Of a stretch of 58,360 bases of DNA, positions 7,389 through 27,865 are shown piece after piece. Below the pieces are notes generated by a model, which saw only the letters and a list, made by a program, of their open reading frames with translations, had not been told where the DNA came from and made no database searches. Positions within the stretch are counted from its first letter, which is position 1; each line of letters opens with the position of its first letter. A program made the translations under genes and the position numbers. The DNA lies in sequence record SRR22947725_830; one strand, given 5' to 3'.

Positions 7389-7739
7389 ATGCCAAGGTCC
7401 AATAGTTCAGTACCAAGACATAGAAGACATCGCAAGACTGTTAAGTTAGCGAAAGGATATTTCGGAGCAAGAAGCCGTAATTATAAAGCTGCAAAAGATG
7501 CAGTGGTAAAAGCTGGTTTATATGCTTACAGAGATAGAAGGCAGAAAAAACGTCAATTTAGACGTCTATGGATAGTACGTATTAATGCCGCATCAAGATT
7601 AAATGGTTTATCATATTCAAATTTTGTACATTTATTGAAGGAGAAGGGTGTCGATTTAGACAGAAAGGTTTTAGCTCATTTAGCAGTTAATAATCCATCT
7701 GTGTTTGAAGACCTTGTAAAATATTTAAAGAAAAAATAA
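7389..7739 (+). CDS. rplT: 50S ribosomal protein L20
   Basis: [40 protein letters not shown]. Confidence 0.99.
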
Positions 7740-7749
7740 AAAATTAAAG

Positions 7750-8739
7750 ATGTCATTAGATAACACTATCAAAGAAATTAAGGCATCTTTCCAATCAGAA
7801 TTATCCAACTGCAACACATCTACTGACCTCGAAAATATCCGTATTACTTATCTTGGAAGAAAGGGTAAGCTTACTACCTTATTTGAAGAGTTCACAAAAC
7901 TTCCCGGTTCTGAAAAACCTAAATACGGAAAAACGCTTAACATATTAAAGACCGACCTTACAAGTGCATTTGATAAAAAATTAAAAGAAATAAATCCTAA
8001 TAGTCATAAATCAAATGATAGTTCAGAAGATTTTTCACTACCCGGGTATAACCTACCCGAGGGTAGCTTGCATCCATTGGAACAAGTTACTAGTGAAATA
8101 AAGGCAATATTTCAATCTATTGGTTTTTCGGTAGCCTATGGACCTGAAATTGATGATGATTATCATAATTTTGAAGCATTAAACGTACCGAAGCATCACC
8201 CTGCTAGAGACATGCAGGATACATTCTTTGTTGACCCTAATACAGTTTTAAGAACTCACACTTCAAATGTTCAAATTCACTTGATGGAAAATCAAGATCC
8301 ACCACTACGTCATATTTGCTGTGGTAGAGTATTTAGAAACGAAGCAGTAAGTTATAAGAGTTTTTGCTTATTCAATCAGGTAGAGGGGTTGGTAATTAAT
8401 GAAACTTCTTCATTCGCTGAAATGAAAGGAACATTAGAGTATTTTGTAAAAGAAATGTTTGGTGAGGGTACTAAGATGCGTTTTAGACCAAGTTACTTTC
8501 CATTTACCGAACCAAGCGCGGAAGTAGACATATGGAATGATAAACTTAATCAGTGGATGGAAATTTTAGGATGTGGTATGGTAAATCCAAATGTCCTTAC
8601 AAATGTAGGTTATGATAATAAAAAATATCAAGGATTTGCTTTTGGAATGGGTATAGAGCGAATCGCTATGATTAAATATGGAATTAAAGATATTCGTCTT
8701 TTCTATCAGAACGATAAACGATTTTTGGAGCAATTTTAA
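7750..8739 (+). CDS. pheS: Phenylalanine-tRNA ligase alpha subunit
   Basis: GSLHP, NFEALNVPKHHPARDMQDTF, LRTHTS, FRPSYFPFTEPSAE, GFAFGMGIER. Confidence 0.99.
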   Translation: MSLDNTIKEIKASFQSELSNCNTSTDLENIRITYLGRKGKLTTLFEEFTKLPGSEKPKYGKTLNILKTDLTSAFDKKLKEINPNSHKSNDSSEDFSLPGYNLPEGSLHPLEQVTSEIKAIFQSIGFSVAYGPEIDDDYHNFEALNVPKHHPARDMQDTFFVDPNTVLRTHTSNVQIHLMENQDPPLRHICCGRVFRNEAVSYKSFCLFNQVEGLVINETSSFAEMKGTLEYFVKEMFGEGTKMRFRPSYFPFTEPSAEVDIWNDKLNQWMEILGCGMVNPNVLTNVGYDNKKYQGFAFGMGIERIAMIKYGIKDIRLFYQNDKRFLEQF

Positions 8740-22898: not shown

Positions 22899-23047
22899 TT
22901 TTATGCAAGGCATGGCTTGCAAAAAGGCCTATTTTGTGAGCCAAAGAATTTCTCGACATAAAATATTAAATATTTAAAAATCAATGGCTTGCAAAAACGC
23001 ATAAAATGCAAGCTATTGTCTGCAATGCATATAAAATGAAAGCCAAA
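22899..23047. repeat. Cluster of direct and inverted copies of a TGGCTTGCA-core motif
   Basis: ATGGCTTGCAAAAA(G/C)GC at 22912 and 22984; inverted variants at 22899-22913, 23001-23017 and 23031-23047. Confidence 0.7.
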
Positions 23048-23096: not shown

Positions 23097-23939
23097 GTGA
23101 AACCGTTTATAAAGTGGGCAGGAGGCAAGTATAGACTTGCAGATAAGCTAATTACATTGATTCCCTCATCTTTTAATCACTCAAAAAATACTTATATTGA
23201 ACCAATGGTAGGTTCTGGTGGCTTCTTTTTTAAATATGCACCAAAACAGTCCTATTTGTCGGATATAAATCAAAACCTTATAATTACCTACAATATCATT
23301 AAAAATGATGTGAACACACTAATTTCAAGCTTAAAAGAACATCAAGAACTACATAATAAAGAATATTTTTATGACCAGCGTAAAAAATTTAATGAATTAA
23401 TAACAAGCAGTGGATCTGATATAGATATCGCTTCTTTGTTTATTTATCTAAATCGTACATGCTTTAATGGGCTTTATAGAGAGAATTCAAAAGGTGAGTT
23501 TAATGTACCGATAGGTAGTTATAAAAATCCTCTAATATGTGACGAAATGAATCTTCTATCTGTACACAAAATTTTGCAAAATATTATTATTCAATGCCAT
23601 GGATATGAACATGTAAATCCCAAGGAAGGAGACTTCGTTTATTTTGATCCTCCATATATACCGTTAGATAAAACTTCATTTACAAAATACTCTAGTGATG
23701 ACTTTGGTGAAAAAGATCATAGAAATTTAGCAGATTTTTGTTGTAAACTTAGTGAGAATGGAATTTTTTTCATGATATCAAATTCAAATACTGTATTGAC
23801 TAAAGAAATTTATGCTCAATTCAATCTTAAAGAAATTCAAGTAATGCGTACTATTGCTGGGTCACAGTCTAAAAGAGGAATGGCAAATGAACTGATAATT
23901 ACCAACTATAAAAAGTTTGCTCAAAAGGAACTGTTTTAA
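23097..23939 (+). CDS. Dam/D12-class N6-adenine DNA methyltransferase
   Basis: KWAGGK, EPMVGSGG (motif I), YLNRTCFNGLYRENSKGEFNVP.G, YFDPPY, ISNS, ELIITNY; GTG start. Confidence 0.95.
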   Translation: MKPFIKWAGGKYRLADKLITLIPSSFNHSKNTYIEPMVGSGGFFFKYAPKQSYLSDINQNLIITYNIIKNDVNTLISSLKEHQELHNKEYFYDQRKKFNELITSSGSDIDIASLFIYLNRTCFNGLYRENSKGEFNVPIGSYKNPLICDEMNLLSVHKILQNIIIQCHGYEHVNPKEGDFVYFDPPYIPLDKTSFTKYSSDDFGEKDHRNLADFCCKLSENGIFFMISNSNTVLTKEIYAQFNLKEIQVMRTIAGSQSKRGMANELIITNYKKFAQKELF

Positions 23940-26452
23940 TGTCACCTAACGCCGCAATTAAAGATTTGACTAATATATACAAGCCTTCAAGACAAACGGC
24001 GGTTATAAATAATGAAATTTCAATTAGAAAAAATGAAAATTCAAATCCAGAAACCGCTGATTGGAAGAAATTTGAAAATGAATTTTGGATTGAGATAGAA
24101 AAATTTAGAACCGAAATATCTTTTATAACCTGTGAAAAGACAATCCCAGGTACATCTGCAGAAAAAAGTAGATATATATGGGGCGAAGGATCTCAAAGAA
24201 ACCAGCAAATTGACTGTCTTTTCATTAGAAAAAATATTGCTTTTTATTGTGGAGTTACTAAAAGGAATGATCAAATAACAGCAAAGATTGAAGAATTTAA
24301 AAGAGAGAGGGATAGGGTAAAAAGAGCCGGAATTAAAGATTACTTATCTGCTAATCATGCTCCCTCAAATCAGGAAATAGACCAGATCATATTTATCTTT
24401 GTTTCTCATAAAAATCTTACTAGCGGTATGAAAGATCTACTAGAAAACTATAATATACCTTACCTAGAAAAAAGACATTTATCGTATTTGAAGTCTATCC
24501 ATAAAGCCTACGGTAAACATCACAGATTAGCTTTTAATAATTTTGTTCAAGATATTTTAAGGTCAAAAGTAGTTGCAGGAAATAACATTCAATTACCCGC
24601 AATACAATATAAATATCGCACACTTAGTAGAGGTAATGGTCACTGTTACTCATTTATTGTACATCCATCGGATATTTTAGATTTATGCTCTGTTATACAT
24701 AGAAAAAGTAATTTTGATCTTGATAAATCTTATCAAAGATTCGTTGAAAAGAGTAGATTGGACAGTATTTTAAATTTTGTTGATTCGAACAAGCAATTTG
24801 CAAACAATATTATTCTTCAATCAGATGAAATTCAAGCATCGAATTTTTCTCCAGCAACTTCAACTTCAGAGTCTGAAAATCATAAATTAATTAATGATCC
24901 TAACAAAGATTACAAAGTTGGTATTCTAAAACTACCTACATTTGTTGGAACCATGAGTATTATCGATGGTCAGCACAGATTGTTTGGCTACGATGGTTCA
25001 GTCAGTAAAAATAAACATTTTGTAAACGTTGTTTTATTTGATAAAACGTTAGGTGAAACTGAACAAATGAAGTTATTTATGGATATAAACGACACCCAAA
25101 AAGCCTTAAACAAAAACCTCAAATGGGAGCTTTATGAAAACACGCTTGAAGCAAGTACTGATCGGTATAAGATTTCAAAATTTATGAATAAAATAACTCG
25201 AGATCTAAATTTTGAACTTTATAAAAAAATGACACTTGGAATTCCTTTGGAAGAAGATAAAGAAAAGAATGTTTCCCTCACAATAGCTGGATTTTGCGAT
25301 GAACTATATGTAACAAAACCTTATAATAATAATGAACGGTTATTTAGTTATTTATCGTCAAAGTTTAATAATGATAATACAAAAATTGAAAAAGTTATTA
25401 ATGGTTTTTTAAAAACCTTTAAAGATAAATGCAATACTGATTGGGTTTTAAATAGTAACGGAATAATCCTTAATGGTTCTGTTTTTAGATCCTTGATGAT
25501 TATTATGAGGGAAGTATTAGATTTTTGGACTTCCAACGGAACTTTTAGTCAAAAAACTTCAGATCTTGATAATATAAATTTAAATTTTGAAGAAGTTCTT
25601 GAGAATCTTTATGAATGGATAAACAATTTAGAGCAATATCAGAAAACTAAATTTAAAGATGAAAATAAAGGTGGCAGCGCAGTTAAAAATATCGCAATTT
25701 TTTTTGCTGATAAAATAAAAGATAAAAACGGTCAATCTGATTTTGCAATTCACTTACGTTCACTTGGAGGTAAAAATGTTGAACTAGTCGATCACTTATT
25801 AAATATTTTAAATAATTGCGGTGAAACAGAAGATCTAGAAGCAAAGTTAAGTATTTATGGACTTAGTCCTGATATTTCCAATAGAAAGCAAACAGCTGAA
25901 AAACAATTAAAAGGTTGTAATGCATTTTATAATCATATTGGTGGAAGAATTATTGTTGGTATAGAAGATCGTGGGAATGGAATGCCACCTGGAGAAAATC
26001 AATTTATTATAAAAGGGTGTGATGATGAAATTCGTGGTAATACCAGTACTGGAAATTTTGAAGAATATGAAGATAAAATTATTTCTTTAGTTAAAAAACA
26101 CTCAAATAATAAAATAATAGCAAAAGTAAAAAAAATAAGATATTTAGATAAGAATGTTGTTATTATAAATATAAAGCATAAACAAAATATTAATGCTGTT
26201 GGTGACTTCCAGAAAATGTTTTATCAACATATTAGAGAACTAAAGGAGATGAATCCCAAGCCAAGCTATGGAAGGAATTCACATCAGTCAGAAATGATGA
26301 ATACGGATAATCAAGCTCAATTTTTAAGAGATAGAAATGATTCATTAGAGAATCTAGAGTTTCTTTCTTTAAGTAAATATTTGGAAGTTATGGAAAGTAG
26401 GAATTTTAAGCCCTATCAGATGCAACAACATGATTTCAGATTAAAGATTTAG
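23939..26452 (+). CDS. DGQHR (DndB/ParB-like) domain protein with degenerate N-terminal REase-like region and C-terminal Schlafen/AlbA_2-like domain
   Basis: FENEFW...QQIDCLF (N-term); YQR..EKSRL..I, FANNII, IIDGQHRLFGY, LF.DIN.TQK (centre); GETEDLEAK...AFYNHIGGRIIVGIED...IKG (C-term); TAATG coupling to the MTase. Confidence 0.85.
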   Translation: MSPNAAIKDLTNIYKPSRQTAVINNEISIRKNENSNPETADWKKFENEFWIEIEKFRTEISFITCEKTIPGTSAEKSRYIWGEGSQRNQQIDCLFIRKNIAFYCGVTKRNDQITAKIEEFKRERDRVKRAGIKDYLSANHAPSNQEIDQIIFIFVSHKNLTSGMKDLLENYNIPYLEKRHLSYLKSIHKAYGKHHRLAFNNFVQDILRSKVVAGNNIQLPAIQYKYRTLSRGNGHCYSFIVHPSDILDLCSVIHRKSNFDLDKSYQRFVEKSRLDSILNFVDSNKQFANNIILQSDEIQASNFSPATSTSESENHKLINDPNKDYKVGILKLPTFVGTMSIIDGQHRLFGYDGSVSKNKHFVNVVLFDKTLGETEQMKLFMDINDTQKALNKNLKWELYENTLEASTDRYKISKFMNKITRDLNFELYKKMTLGIPLEEDKEKNVSLTIAGFCDELYVTKPYNNNERLFSYLSSKFNNDNTKIEKVINGFLKTFKDKCNTDWVLNSNGIILNGSVFRSLMIIMREVLDFWTSNGTFSQKTSDLDNINLNFEEVLENLYEWINNLEQYQKTKFKDENKGGSAVKNIAIFFADKIKDKNGQSDFAIHLRSLGGKNVELVDHLLNILNNCGETEDLEAKLSIYGLSPDISNRKQTAEKQLKGCNAFYNHIGGRIIVGIEDRGNGMPPGENQFIIKGCDDEIRGNTSTGNFEEYEDKIISLVKKHSNNKIIAKVKKIRYLDKNVVIINIKHKQNINAVGDFQKMFYQHIRELKEMNPKPSYGRNSHQSEMMNTDNQAQFLRDRNDSLENLEFLSLSKYLEVMESRNFKPYQMQQHDFRLKI

Positions 26453-26455
26453 TAT

Positions 26456-26483
26456 TTTACGTATAATATATATTATGTATAAT
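26456..26483 (+). other. dif: dif site (XerC/XerD chromosome dimer resolution site)
   Basis: TTTACGTATAA-TATATA-TTATGTATAAT, an 11-6-11 layout versus E. coli GGTGCGCATAA-TGTATA-TTATGTTAAAT; close to the global gene-orientation switch. Confidence 0.85.
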
Positions 26484-26492
26484 TGGGGGAAT

Positions 26493-27155
26493 ATGAGAAA
26501 TACACTAGGTAAAAATACAAGGAGACTACTACTCTCCTATATCGGACTACTCACTTTAGCAGCATTCTTTTATGGTGGTGGAAACTATATTGAAAAACAA
26601 ACACCCTACTATAACTTTTTTACAAATTTTATAAGTGACTTAGGTCGTACAACTAGCCATTCTGGTGCTGATAACACCATATCTATTGTTTTATTTTCAA
26701 TGGGAATGTTAACTCAAATCATTGCTTCATTTTATTATCTTTTTAATGCTGCAGAGTATTTTTCAAAAGATAAACCTAAAATAAGTATTGTAGCTAAAAT
26801 TTCAGCTGCACTTGGATCTATTAGTTTGCTTGGAGTTGTTTTTACGCCGGCTGATGTACCATCGCTATATTCCCTTCATATTTTCTTCGCAAATTCAGTG
26901 TTTAACTGCGCTTTGCTGACTTTAGGTATATATGCATACCTTTTTTACTCAAAAGGCTTAAAAAACGTTACATATGCTCTTTTTACTTGTTCTTTAATTG
27001 TTGCCGGATATATAGTCTTTCTTGAGATTGGTCCAGCGCCTTGGAAGTCAATTGAATCCTTAACGATGCATGCAACCTATCAAAAAGTAGCAGTTTTAAG
27101 TCTCGTTGGAACTATTTGGGTTATGTCTAAGGGAACAGACTTACTTGAAACTTAG
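26493..27155 (+). CDS. Multi-pass membrane protein (DUF998-like), paralog 1
   Basis: Y.GG...YNFFTNFISDLGRT, ~6 TM; start moved to ATG 26493 (GGGGGA RBS) because the track's ATG lies inside dif. Confidence 0.7.
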   Translation: MRNTLGKNTRRLLLSYIGLLTLAAFFYGGGNYIEKQTPYYNFFTNFISDLGRTTSHSGADNTISIVLFSMGMLTQIIASFYYLFNAAEYFSKDKPKISIVAKISAALGSISLLGVVFTPADVPSLYSLHIFFANSVFNCALLTLGIYAYLFYSKGLKNVTYALFTCSLIVAGYIVFLEIGPAPWKSIESLTMHATYQKVAVLSLVGTIWVMSKGTDLLET

Positions 27156-27199
27156 ATATATTTTTTTTGAAATTTTATTTCTTTGTGTATATTAGCCGC

Positions 27200-27865
27200 A
27201 TGAGTTCTATAACAAGCAAAACCAGGCAATACCTTATTTTTTATACCATTTGTATTTTTGCTGCTATGCCATTCTATCAGGGTGGTCATCTTCTGGATTC
27301 AACTACAGATAACTATAATTTTTTTAGAAATTTTATAAGTGATTTAGGTAGAACAATTAGTCTTTCTGGTGAGAGAAATTTAACGTCATTTGTTATTTTC
27401 TCAACTGGTACTTTGGTCTTACTTGGATCGCTAGCCAGATTTCTTTTTTTAGGTATTTCTCAGTTTAAAACAAACTTTGGATTACTTACTTTTATCGCAA
27501 GAATTACAGCAATATATAGCTGCATTGGTGTTCTTGGTGTAGTTATTACACCTGTCAATGTTCCCGCTCTTTATGCTCTTCATCTTTTTTTTGCAATATC
27601 TATGACTTGTGCTATAGGAATCACACTTGGTTTATACTCATACTTTTTCTACAGAGAAAACTATATCGACTATAGTATTTTAATACTGATTTCTGCCCTG
27701 TCAGTTGTCAAATATCTTGCTTTTATTGAATATGGTCCATCAGCTAGAGAGTCTTTGATAGGTTTAACGTTACATGCTTCCTTTCAAAAGTATATAATTC
27801 TAATGATGGTAATAACCTTCTTCTATATGACAAAAGGTATTGATTTACTTAACGACGAAGTTTAA
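27200..27865 (+). CDS. Multi-pass membrane protein (DUF998-like), paralog 2
   Basis: YQGG...YNFFRNFISDLGRT, TP..VP.LY.LH.FFA, GP....S...LT.HA..QK shared with the upstream gene. Confidence 0.7.
   Translation: MSSITSKTRQYLIFYTICIFAAMPFYQGGHLLDSTTDNYNFFRNFISDLGRTISLSGERNLTSFVIFSTGTLVLLGSLARFLFLGISQFKTNFGLLTFIARITAIYSCIGVLGVVITPVNVPALYALHLFFAISMTCAIGITLGLYSYFFYRENYIDYSILILISALSVVKYLAFIEYGPSARESLIGLTLHASFQKYIILMMVITFFYMTKGIDLLNDEV

Follow-up and report, generated by a model that had tools for sequence, protein, structure and literature searches.

What would be the function of a protein in which a restriction-endonuclease domain has lost part of its catalytic motif and a nuclease domain of the Schlafen type, predicted to act on RNA, stands at the other end? 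This question is raised by P0001, an 837-amino-acid (aa) protein encoded in a stretch of 58,360 nucleotides (nt) from sequence record SRR22947725_830, the whole of which is referred to here as the window (coordinates are given in Table 1). P0001 belongs to a widespread family of proteins of approximately 765 aa, made up of a restriction-endonuclease (REase) fold domain, a DGQHR domain and a HEPN RNase, in a minority of which Schlafen replaces HEPN. The conserved unit is a methylase together with this REase fold-DGQHR-RNase protein. An earlier interpretation made from the letters alone, called here the sequence-only reading, had proposed a three-domain architecture for P0001; the open reading frame (ORF) is real, all of the motifs quoted are where they were placed, and the three domains are supported. 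The coupled Dam-family methylase, the gene that is the key to the system, had been overlooked.

HEPN and Schlafen domains at the same position

The Schlafen (AlbA_2) signature recognized at the C-terminus by the sequence-only reading is borne out by Pfam, where SLFN_AlbA_2 (PF04326) matches P0001 with 27.0 bits (E 7.2e-6), the gathering score being 25.3, and the scores of relatives reach 54.3 bits. The catalytic motif of SLFN11 and of the prokaryotic Schlafen nucleases, Ex4(E/D)xK (PMC13056530), is intact as E629-TEDL-E634-A-K636, within GETEDLEAK (aa 628-636, nt 25820-25846). It is invariant in 17 of 17 and in 5 of 5 aligned sequences, and none of 39 Schlafen-type relatives lacks Ex4[ED]xK. 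Schlafen features also include a SAFAN box, a Gly/hydrophobic stretch and an acidic triad (bioRxiv 10.64898/2026.05.29.728809). The box is a variant in P0001, N-A-F-Y-N (aa 661-665), followed by GGRIIVGIED, with AFYNHIGGRIIVGIED at aa 662-677. Residues E629, E634, K636, N665, G669, G674, D677 and R779 are invariant in the Schlafen-type alignments, R779 falling in the last conserved block of the domain. D677 aligns to the second D of GVDD in SLFN14, which is presumably the catalytic D249. In the PDB, a profile made from this domain picks out the nuclease lobe of SLFN5, SLFN14, SLFN11, SLFN8 and SLFN12, at E 1e-5 to 2.7e-3.

A word-based search returned 45 relatives of P0001, 16 of which (P0002-P0017) align over at least 57% of the query, and 15 of these 16 carry a precomputed PF04326 match. 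When 1.84 billion representative proteins were searched exhaustively, 741 matched at E<=1e-3, of which 422 passed E<=1e-10 and only 12 passed E<=1e-30. The locus sample, with one genome per species, was reduced from 261 pattern matches to 172 confirmed relatives and 80 loci, most of the proteins of which are 750-790 aa. Pfam was run on 70 of these 80 proteins, the 10 short ones being left out. DndB is matched at E<=0.01 in 69 of the 70 and AlbA_2 above its cut-off in four (L001, L006, L014 and L056). Matches to Swt1-like HEPN at E<=0.01 come from 14 of the proteins and fall slightly short of the gathering score, 27.5, the highest being 27.2.

When 87 full-length members were sorted by C-terminal domain with local hidden Markov models (HMMs), 65 were HEPN-type, 21 were Schlafen-type and 1 was neither; none matched both HMMs. 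The R and the H of the HEPN motif Rx4H are each present in 61 of the 65 HEPN-type members. On an enlarged set, 39 of 195 are Schlafen-type. Seventeen of the representatives newly assigned to this type were run against Pfam, and AlbA_2 passed its cut-off in 16; it did so as well in one more, which had escaped the local HMM.

In a tree of the 87 members (IQ-TREE quick search, 370 columns), 17 of the Schlafen-type members form one clade (SH-like approximate likelihood-ratio test, SH-aLRT, 100), which encloses the six-member group of P0001 (99), named E-D-G-T for the residues described below. A second group (95) is made up of three other Schlafen-type members, and a long branch leads to L056. In an unrooted FastTree tree of 195 rows, made up of these 87 and 108 further full-length representatives, the 39 Schlafen-type rows need 4 label changes, at least 3 of which are forced by well-supported branches. 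HEPN and Schlafen have been exchanged repeatedly, at least three times, at the same position; the tree being unrooted, it gives no direction to the exchange. Since a C-terminal RNase was already present in the wider family, the swap is between HEPN and Schlafen and is not an addition to a DNase. The sequence-only reading had taken Schlafen to be an effector added to a DNase-based enzyme, with toxicity moving from DNA to RNA. A swap of effectors does exist, but not of that kind, as relatives already hold a HEPN RNase where P0001 has Schlafen.

A word-based search with aa 600-837 found only 3 proteins, all of the clade of P0001 itself, and gave no lead to where the Schlafen cassette came from. 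There are also 15 full-length members (P0069, P0071, P0073, P0083, P0093, P0107, P0112, P0119, P0120, P0127, P0130, P0137, P0144, P0145 and P0166) in which the DGQHR motif is followed by approximately 400 aa without a match to either HMM, HEPN or Schlafen, or to any Pfam family. These C-termini may be further effector types or highly divergent HEPN domains.

The central DGQHR domain

TIGR03187 (DGQHR) matches the centre of P0001 with 100 bits (E 1.8e-28) against a cut-off of 58.85, and both this profile and AlbA_2, two of those proposed for checking the sequence-only reading, are above their cut-offs. The DGQHR domain is defined by a QR pair, DGQHR and FxxxN, and the motifs DGQQR and DGQHR are related (PMC4619093). 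All three of the defining motifs are found in P0001, as Q266-R267 within YQR (aa 265-267, nt 24731-24739), D343-R347 (nt 24965-24979) and F380 to N384 (FMDIN), and they are invariant in alignments of 17 (A1) and 52 (A3) relatives. Of 190 database relatives, 188 have the DGQHR pentapeptide.

DndB proper (phosphorothioation) was considered for this domain and rejected, as the dnd-type model TIGR04172 gives 58 bits against a cut-off of 450 and the genes around it encode a methylase, a Cas4-like nuclease and housekeeping functions. Also rejected was DpdB (7-deazaguanine DNA modification), for which there is only a weak PADLOC match (37.9 bits) and no dpd-like neighbour. No dnd or dpd genes (dndACDE, dpdA/TGT-like) are among the neighbours of P0001 in the window. 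Pfam GmrSD_N (DUF262) was not detected in P0001 at E<=1, and the ParB-like domain is of the DGQHR type. Against PDB sequences the central domain gave nothing meaningful, the best match being a Rab GTPase (E 0.046), and in collections of plasmids and phages the DGQHR proteins found were all distant, at up to 27.5% identity.

The N-terminal domain and the loss of its catalytic motif

The N-terminal domain has a PD-(D/E)xK fold, which is taken as established by way of the relatives and has moderate structural support. The domain from the window alone matches 0 Pfam families at E<=1, and its profile has 0 matches among PDB sequences. Among 48 aligned N-domains scanned separately, Hjc is matched in 27, Card1_endonuc in 16 (best E 2.8e-7), NERD in 8, HSDR_N_2 in 2, Mrr_cat in 1 and one other REase family in 1, and every one of these is a PD-(D/E)xK family. 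With the 70 whole locus proteins, the N-terminal 200 aa or so gave weak matches to Hjc (8), the Card1 endonuclease (3) and NERD (1); the Card1 endonuclease match in L055 exceeds its cut-off. An HMM of 43 HEPN-type N-termini links these relatives to the N-terminus of P0001 with 22.6 bits (E 3.2e-9, for a single target).

The AlphaFold2 model of aa 1-224 has a mean predicted local distance difference test score of 72.9 and a predicted template modelling score of 0.69, with low confidence at residues 1-32, which are predicted to be disordered, and 68-78. It shows a helix-strand-strand-strand-helix-strand (alpha-beta-beta-beta-alpha-beta) core, including a helix at 37-54 (with E46), strands at 93-97 (after D92) and 100-107 (with G105 and T107), a helix at 113-130 and a strand at 149-156. 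The best Foldseek matches of the model in the PDB are nearly all PD-(D/E)xK nucleases, headed by Can2 (E 5.4e-3, probability 0.99) and including N.BspD6I, Cdn1, NucS/EndoMS, the R.BspD6I small subunit, BstEII, VC1899, Card1, FokI, XisH and MUS81. In the ESM Atlas, aa 1-225 gave only sub-0.9 leads, to clusters with NERD in 13% or Mrr_cat_2 in 24% of their members. The restriction fold claimed by the sequence-only reading is thus found by profile in the relatives and through the 22.6-bit HMM, but not in the window domain alone, and the predicted structure has a PD-(D/E)xK core, but no Foldseek match at E<=1e-3.

In the 87-member full-length alignment the REase motif reads [FL]E[DN]xxW ... QID ... 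E-C-K, to which FENEFW (aa 45-50), QQIDCLF (aa 89-95) and AFYCGVTK (aa 101-108) correspond in P0001. The tetrad was scored at four columns, those of aa 46, 92, 105 and 107 of P0001, and its ancestral form is E-D-E-x-K. It is intact (E-D-E-K) in 47 of the 65 HEPN-type members and in 3 of the 21 Schlafen-type members (P0012, P0013 and L056). All six members of the clade of P0001 read E-D-G-T, with E46 and D92 kept and the E and K of E-x-K gone. That G-V-T-K stands where E-x-K is expected, and that the REase is apparently inactivated, had been claimed from P0001 by itself; the alignment agrees, the column of G105 being E and that of T107 being K in those 47 HEPN-type members. None of 52 aligned sequences departs from E46 or D92. 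When P0001 is aligned to L001 by BLAST, G105 faces E and T107 faces T. The adjacent K108 is not conserved even within the closest clade, being present only in P0001-P0003.

On the DGQHR-core tree, the state of the tetrad, intact or degenerate, has changed at least 15 times, with 13 of the changes falling among the HEPN-type members, and loss of the DNase site is therefore recurrent. Schlafen coexists with a complete E-D-E-C-K in P0012, P0013 and L056, so that loss of the REase is a separate process, and a recurrent one, from the exchange of the RNase. Within the clade the dead N-domain shows no decay and is under constraint. Its identity to P0001 is 58.8% in P0004 and 47.8% in P0007, against 61.0% and 46.7% in the core, which fits a retained non-catalytic role, for example DNA reading. 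The proposal of the sequence-only reading that the fold is kept agrees with this conservation; its use as a DNA reader is inferred.

The N-terminus of one relative, P0015 (785 aa), is a calcineurin-like phosphoesterase (Metallophos, 32.4 bits), and its DGQHR and Schlafen parts are near-identical to those of P0008. This may be a true domain replacement, or a chimera of assembly or gene calling.

A coupled and apparently replaceable adenine methylase

The gene 5' of P0001 encodes a methylase matched by Pfam MethyltransfD12 (205.3 bits) and by NCBIfam TIGR00571 dam (289.7 bits, cut-off 114.85). Its stop codon overlaps the ATG of the P0001 gene as TAATG; the two genes are co-oriented and translationally coupled. 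A homologue of this methylase is present in 47 of the 80 related loci, upstream in 33 and downstream in 14, and in 40 of the 47 it is on the same strand within 150 bp. These counts come from loci of which only 55 have at least 1 kb on both flanks, and within the E-D-G-T clade the linkage is observed in the window alone.

For the loci without a homologue, Pfam was run on 78 neighbouring ORFs. MT-A70 methylases abut the family member in L021, L030, L050 and L055, where the Dam-like one would be, and there is a D12 methylase in L043 and an N6_N4 methylase 1.1 kb away in L066. As L021 and L030 (MT-A70) and L038 (D12) form one tight clade, the methylase gene looks to have been swapped by non-orthologous displacement, and it is therefore the mark that matters, not the enzyme family. 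Of 12 HEPN-type loci with a degenerate REase tetrad, 11 keep an abutting Dam-like methylase. Depletion of GATC was considered as a clue to the specificity of the methylase and rejected, none being seen.

A proposed mechanism and its alternatives

The reading preferred here, which has about an even chance of being correct and draws on analogy with systems described below, is that of a two-gene defence resembling restriction-modification (R-M), in which the methylase marks self, the dead REase and DGQHR domains sense unmarked DNA, and Schlafen cuts RNA. The Dam-family methylase would place N6-methyladenine (m6A) on the DNA of the host. The catalytically dead restriction-fold domain would serve as a DNA-binding reader and, with the DGQHR ParB-like domain, presumed to be a switch dependent on nucleoside triphosphate (NTP) and its hydrolysis, would recognize DNA without the mark. 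This recognition would license the Schlafen nuclease to cut tRNA or other RNA, and translation would halt, leading to abortive infection or growth arrest, with phage defence as the probable outcome. That the protein reads the state of methylation is suggested because an m6A methylase is kept, even by non-orthologous replacement, whether the REase site is alive or dead. The RNase would be the indispensable effector because its catalytic motifs are strictly kept in either fold.

There are precedents. Prokaryotic Schlafen domains are phage-triggered tRNases under fused sensors. The trigger of RorSlfn5 is a phage tail chaperone, and a fusion of DUF262 (ParB-like) to Schlafen defends E. coli (PMC13056530). 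Cleavage of tRNA by a Schlafen-Argonaute system is licensed by recognition of a DNA target (bioRxiv 10.64898/2026.05.29.728809), and in Cash cyclic tetra-adenylate, cA4, turns on the Schlafen tRNase (PMC13462974). A wider proposal, that the family as a whole is R-M-like, with self marked by adenine methylation, unmethylated DNA read by a dead restriction-fold domain and a ParB-like NTPase, and restriction acting on RNA through an interchangeable cassette, HEPN or Schlafen, that cuts tRNA, is more doubtful and is put forward tentatively. P0001 would be the extreme form of such a family, with the DNase wholly retired.

Several observations count against the preferred reading. None of the Foldseek matches reaches E<=1e-3, which is weak support for the N-terminal fold, and the retained E46 and D92 leave residual metal binding or DNA nicking possible. 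ParB-superfamily domains can themselves nick DNA (PMC12839542). The HEPN assignment is made from Pfam matches under the gathering score and the Rx4H motif, and the patterns used to retrieve the loci included IIDGQHRL, which biases the sample toward a conserved DGQHR. An adjacent methylase was not found in 27 of the 80 loci, several of which are short DGQHR-only proteins or lie at contig ends. GATC is not depleted, with 160 observed against 179 expected in the window and 22 against 12.7 in the island.

The main rival is a conventional DNA-cutting restriction enzyme, in which the DGQHR/ParB-like domain, or an N-terminal site rearranged around E46, D92 and one other residue, cuts or nicks DNA and Schlafen is a back-up or a nucleic-acid binder. 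Such an enzyme would explain the tight coupling of the methylase, as in Type II R-M systems, as well as the invariance of E46 and D92 in all 52 sequences. Nicking of DNA, and regulation by ATP, have been reported for ParB/Srx domains (PMC12839542, PMC4619093), and the full tetrad in 47 of the 65 HEPN-type relatives means that the ancestral mechanism probably included DNA cutting. It is nevertheless unlikely for P0001, where both the E and the K of E-x-K are lost in 6 of 6 members of the clade and no relocated Lys is conserved, and for a family in which the tetrad has been lost repeatedly and the RNase motifs stay (Rx4H in 61 of 65, Ex4[ED]xK in 39 of 39).

The same architecture and methylase coupling would also suit a selfish addiction module, similar to a toxin-antitoxin system, in which marking of the chromosome silences the RNase and loss of the module dilutes the methylation, releasing the RNase in post-segregational killing. 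The low-GC island is a location compatible with this, and at the syntenic site L001 the flanks are approximately 70% identical and the effector 33%, as turnover of a mobile or selfish cassette might leave. However, no mobility genes adjoin the module, there are no tRNA genes or Rfam RNAs in the window, and addiction does not preclude defence, classical R-M systems doing both; on its own it is considered rather improbable. Least probable is a DndB-like regulator that binds DNA and controls the expression or activity of the methylase, with Schlafen/AlbA_2 as a DNA binder and not a nuclease. DndB has been described as a negative transcriptional regulator (PMC10853773, PMC4507180), and there are ATGGCTTGCAAAAA repeats and TGCAAG/CTTGCA palindromes upstream of the methylase. 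The repeat is not conserved at L001, though, the TIGR04172 score is far under its cut-off with no dnd or dpd genes nearby, and an Ex4ExK invariant in 39 of 39, with HEPN Rx4H at the same position in relatives, is hard to square with a mere binder.

Gene order and surroundings

The Cas4-like gene, the methylase and the effector gene together form a stretch of low GC (0.26-0.31, the flanks having 0.32-0.38), bordered by housekeeping genes.

Table 1. Features of the module and its domains in the window.
Feature	Position (nt)	Strand	Evidence
Cas4-like PD-(D/E)xK protein, 483 aa	21429-22880	+	PDDEXK_1 26.3 bits; TIGR00372 cas4 51.8 bits (below cut-off of 65)
Dam-family (D12 class) N6-adenine DNA methyltransferase, 280 aa	23097..23939	+	Pfam, NCBIfam
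Three-domain protein P0001, 837 aa	23939..26452	+	ORF call, profile searches
N-terminal PD-(D/E)xK (restriction endonuclease) fold domain, aa 1-224	23939..24610	+	Pfam matches of relatives, HMM link, AlphaFold2, Foldseek
Retained REase residues E46 / D92	24074-24076 / 24212-24214	+	Family alignments
Degenerate catalytic motif G105-V106-T107, opposite E-C-K of relatives	24251..24259	+	Family alignments
DGQHR domain (DndB-like, ParB/Srx superfamily), aa 231-527	24629..25519	+	TIGR03187
Schlafen/AlbA_2 domain, approximately aa 625-790 (Pfam match aa 651-762)	25811..26308	+	Pfam, alignments, PDB profile
Schlafen Ex4ExK motif, E629-x4-E634-x-K636	25823..25846	+	Alignments
D677, candidate third acidic residue of the Schlafen domain	25967-25969	+	Alignment to SLFN14

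The similarity of the Cas4-like protein to its families is confined to the C-terminal half, which has Cys-rich ends, and the first 195 aa or so match nothing; there are 0 matches to it among PDB sequences and no CRISPR-cas genes near it. It was rejected as a conserved third component, there being a homologue in 0 of the 80 loci and none at the syntenic L001. This locus, in a metagenome-assembled genome (MAG) of Flavobacteriaceae, has flanking genes 68-74% identical to those of the window, a methylase 58% identical and an effector 33% identical.

A 216-bp spacer separates the Cas4-like gene from the methylase. Within it, at 22903-23045, ATGGCTTGCAAAAA occurs twice at a distance of 72 nt (90% over 20 nt). 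Several palindromes of TGCAAG/CTTGCA are also there, and one of these overlaps a terminator-like hairpin at 22914-22929. These could be an operator or a terminator; the repeats were rejected as a conserved operator, as they are not conserved before the methylase in L001.

On the other side of P0001, at 26475-27155 and 27167-27865 (+), two membrane proteins, of 226 and 232 aa, are encoded in tandem; they are paralogues and match no family. An ORF downstream of the module in L001 (locus 7654-8026) aligns by tblastx to both copies, at 69% and 35%, and the genes at 26475-27865 are therefore core genome and not part of the island.

Elsewhere, family members are found in larger groups of genes. In an Elusimicrobiaceae MAG (L014:2000-11440), a Schlafen-type relative is within a cluster that has, in order, a Schlafen group-3 helicase-like gene, a D12 methylase, a DpnII endonuclease, an N6_N4 methylase, a 430-aa protein, the DGQHR-Schlafen protein, a 224-aa protein and a RiboL-PSP-type HEPN protein, this last just below its cut-off (27.1 bits, 28.4 needed). 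A second DGQHR protein and a PLD-helicase are beside the family member in L058:3504-12374, and a second DGQHR protein, a radical SAM protein and an ATP-binding protein are beside the one on plasmid pNL1 (L081, 119642-128847), both of which neighbourhoods suggest larger composite islands. The pNL1 protein is 769 aa, and no methylase is annotated adjoining it, in a gene table that is incomplete.

Significance

Bacterial Schlafen nucleases have only recently been shown to be phage-triggered tRNases, and the triggers of most of their fused sensors are little known. In P0001 the presumed sensor is recognizable as what is left of a restriction enzyme and is linked to a methylase, which gives a Schlafen effector a concrete, testable trigger in unmethylated DNA. 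The family is a natural series, with the DNase intact or dead, HEPN or Schlafen as RNase, and D12 or MT-A70 as methylase, and this series could reveal the route from a DNA-cutting restriction system to an RNA-cutting abortive-infection system. Human SLFN11 is reported to bind single-stranded DNA (PMC13462974), and the system proposed for P0001 would parallel it in this respect.

Comparison with known systems

P0001 is made of elements that are already known, sensor-Schlafen fusions and RNases linked to R-M systems, and does not constitute a new category. GmrSD, SspE and BrxU join a DUF262 ParB-like NTPase to an HNH DNase; they cut DNA and mostly target modified DNA. They share with P0001 a ParB-like, nucleotide-dependent sensor and a nuclease effector, together with the reading of DNA modification proposed for P0001, whereas the effector here is a predicted RNase and a methylase is co-encoded. 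With DndB and DpdB the common element is the DGQHR domain family (TIGR03187, and the PADLOC DpdB match), but P0001 is far longer and has two nuclease-type domains, and dnd and dpd genes are absent from its surroundings. The Type II-like R-M systems are resembled in that the methylase gene is adjacent to, and co-oriented with, that of P0001.

PrrC-EcoprrI and RloC are anticodon nucleases tied to R-M or to the sensing of DNA damage (PMC3710099), and are similar in coupling a HEPN-type tRNase to restriction-modification as back-up immunity at the level of RNA. PrrC is a separate protein restrained by a Type I enzyme, while P0001 combines sensor and RNase in a single chain, with a degenerate DNase part. 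In SLFN-pAgo and Cash, a Schlafen tRNase is likewise licensed by foreign nucleic acid or a second messenger, and the single-lobe bacterial Schlafen requires oligomerisation; their sensors are Argonaute/GHKL and Csx15, with no methylase and no ParB-like domain.

Closer still in layout is pSlfn7/EcoSlfn7 (DUF262-Schlafen, PMC13056530), with an N-terminal ParB/Srx NTPase-like domain and a Schlafen nuclease with Ex4(E/D)xK. P0001 differs in that its ParB-like domain is of the DGQHR/DndB type and not DUF262, that it has a further domain, of the REase fold, at the N-terminus and that a methylase is coupled to it. The 55 architectures of the same Schlafen survey, in its supplement, include DUF262.pSlfn (109 members), PDDEXK.pSlfn (2) and HEPN.pSlfn (15). 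DndB, DGQHR and ParB are absent from this table of 55, and members of the present family may be hidden among its 1,020 'unannotated fusions'.

The proteins with REase, ParB (DGQHR) and HEPN domains carry the NCBI name 'DGQHR domain-containing protein', and a 2013 survey of HEPN domains lists 'ParB (Saro_3948)' as a fusion of Swt1-like HEPN in its Table 1 (PMC3710099). Outside that survey Saro_3948 is not mentioned in the literature searched. The listings and opening parts of abstracts of papers mentioning DGQHR do not describe the REase-DGQHR-RNase architecture, and in the work that mentions both DndB and Schlafen the two are separate topics. As far as these searches show, the REase-DGQHR-HEPN family has been listed before, and no characterisation of it was found in the literature searched. 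With these proteins P0001 shares homologous REase-fold and DGQHR domains, the methylase neighbour, the length class and the C-terminal position for an RNase. It is distinguished from them by Schlafen/AlbA_2 in place of HEPN, and by G-x-T in place of E-x-K.

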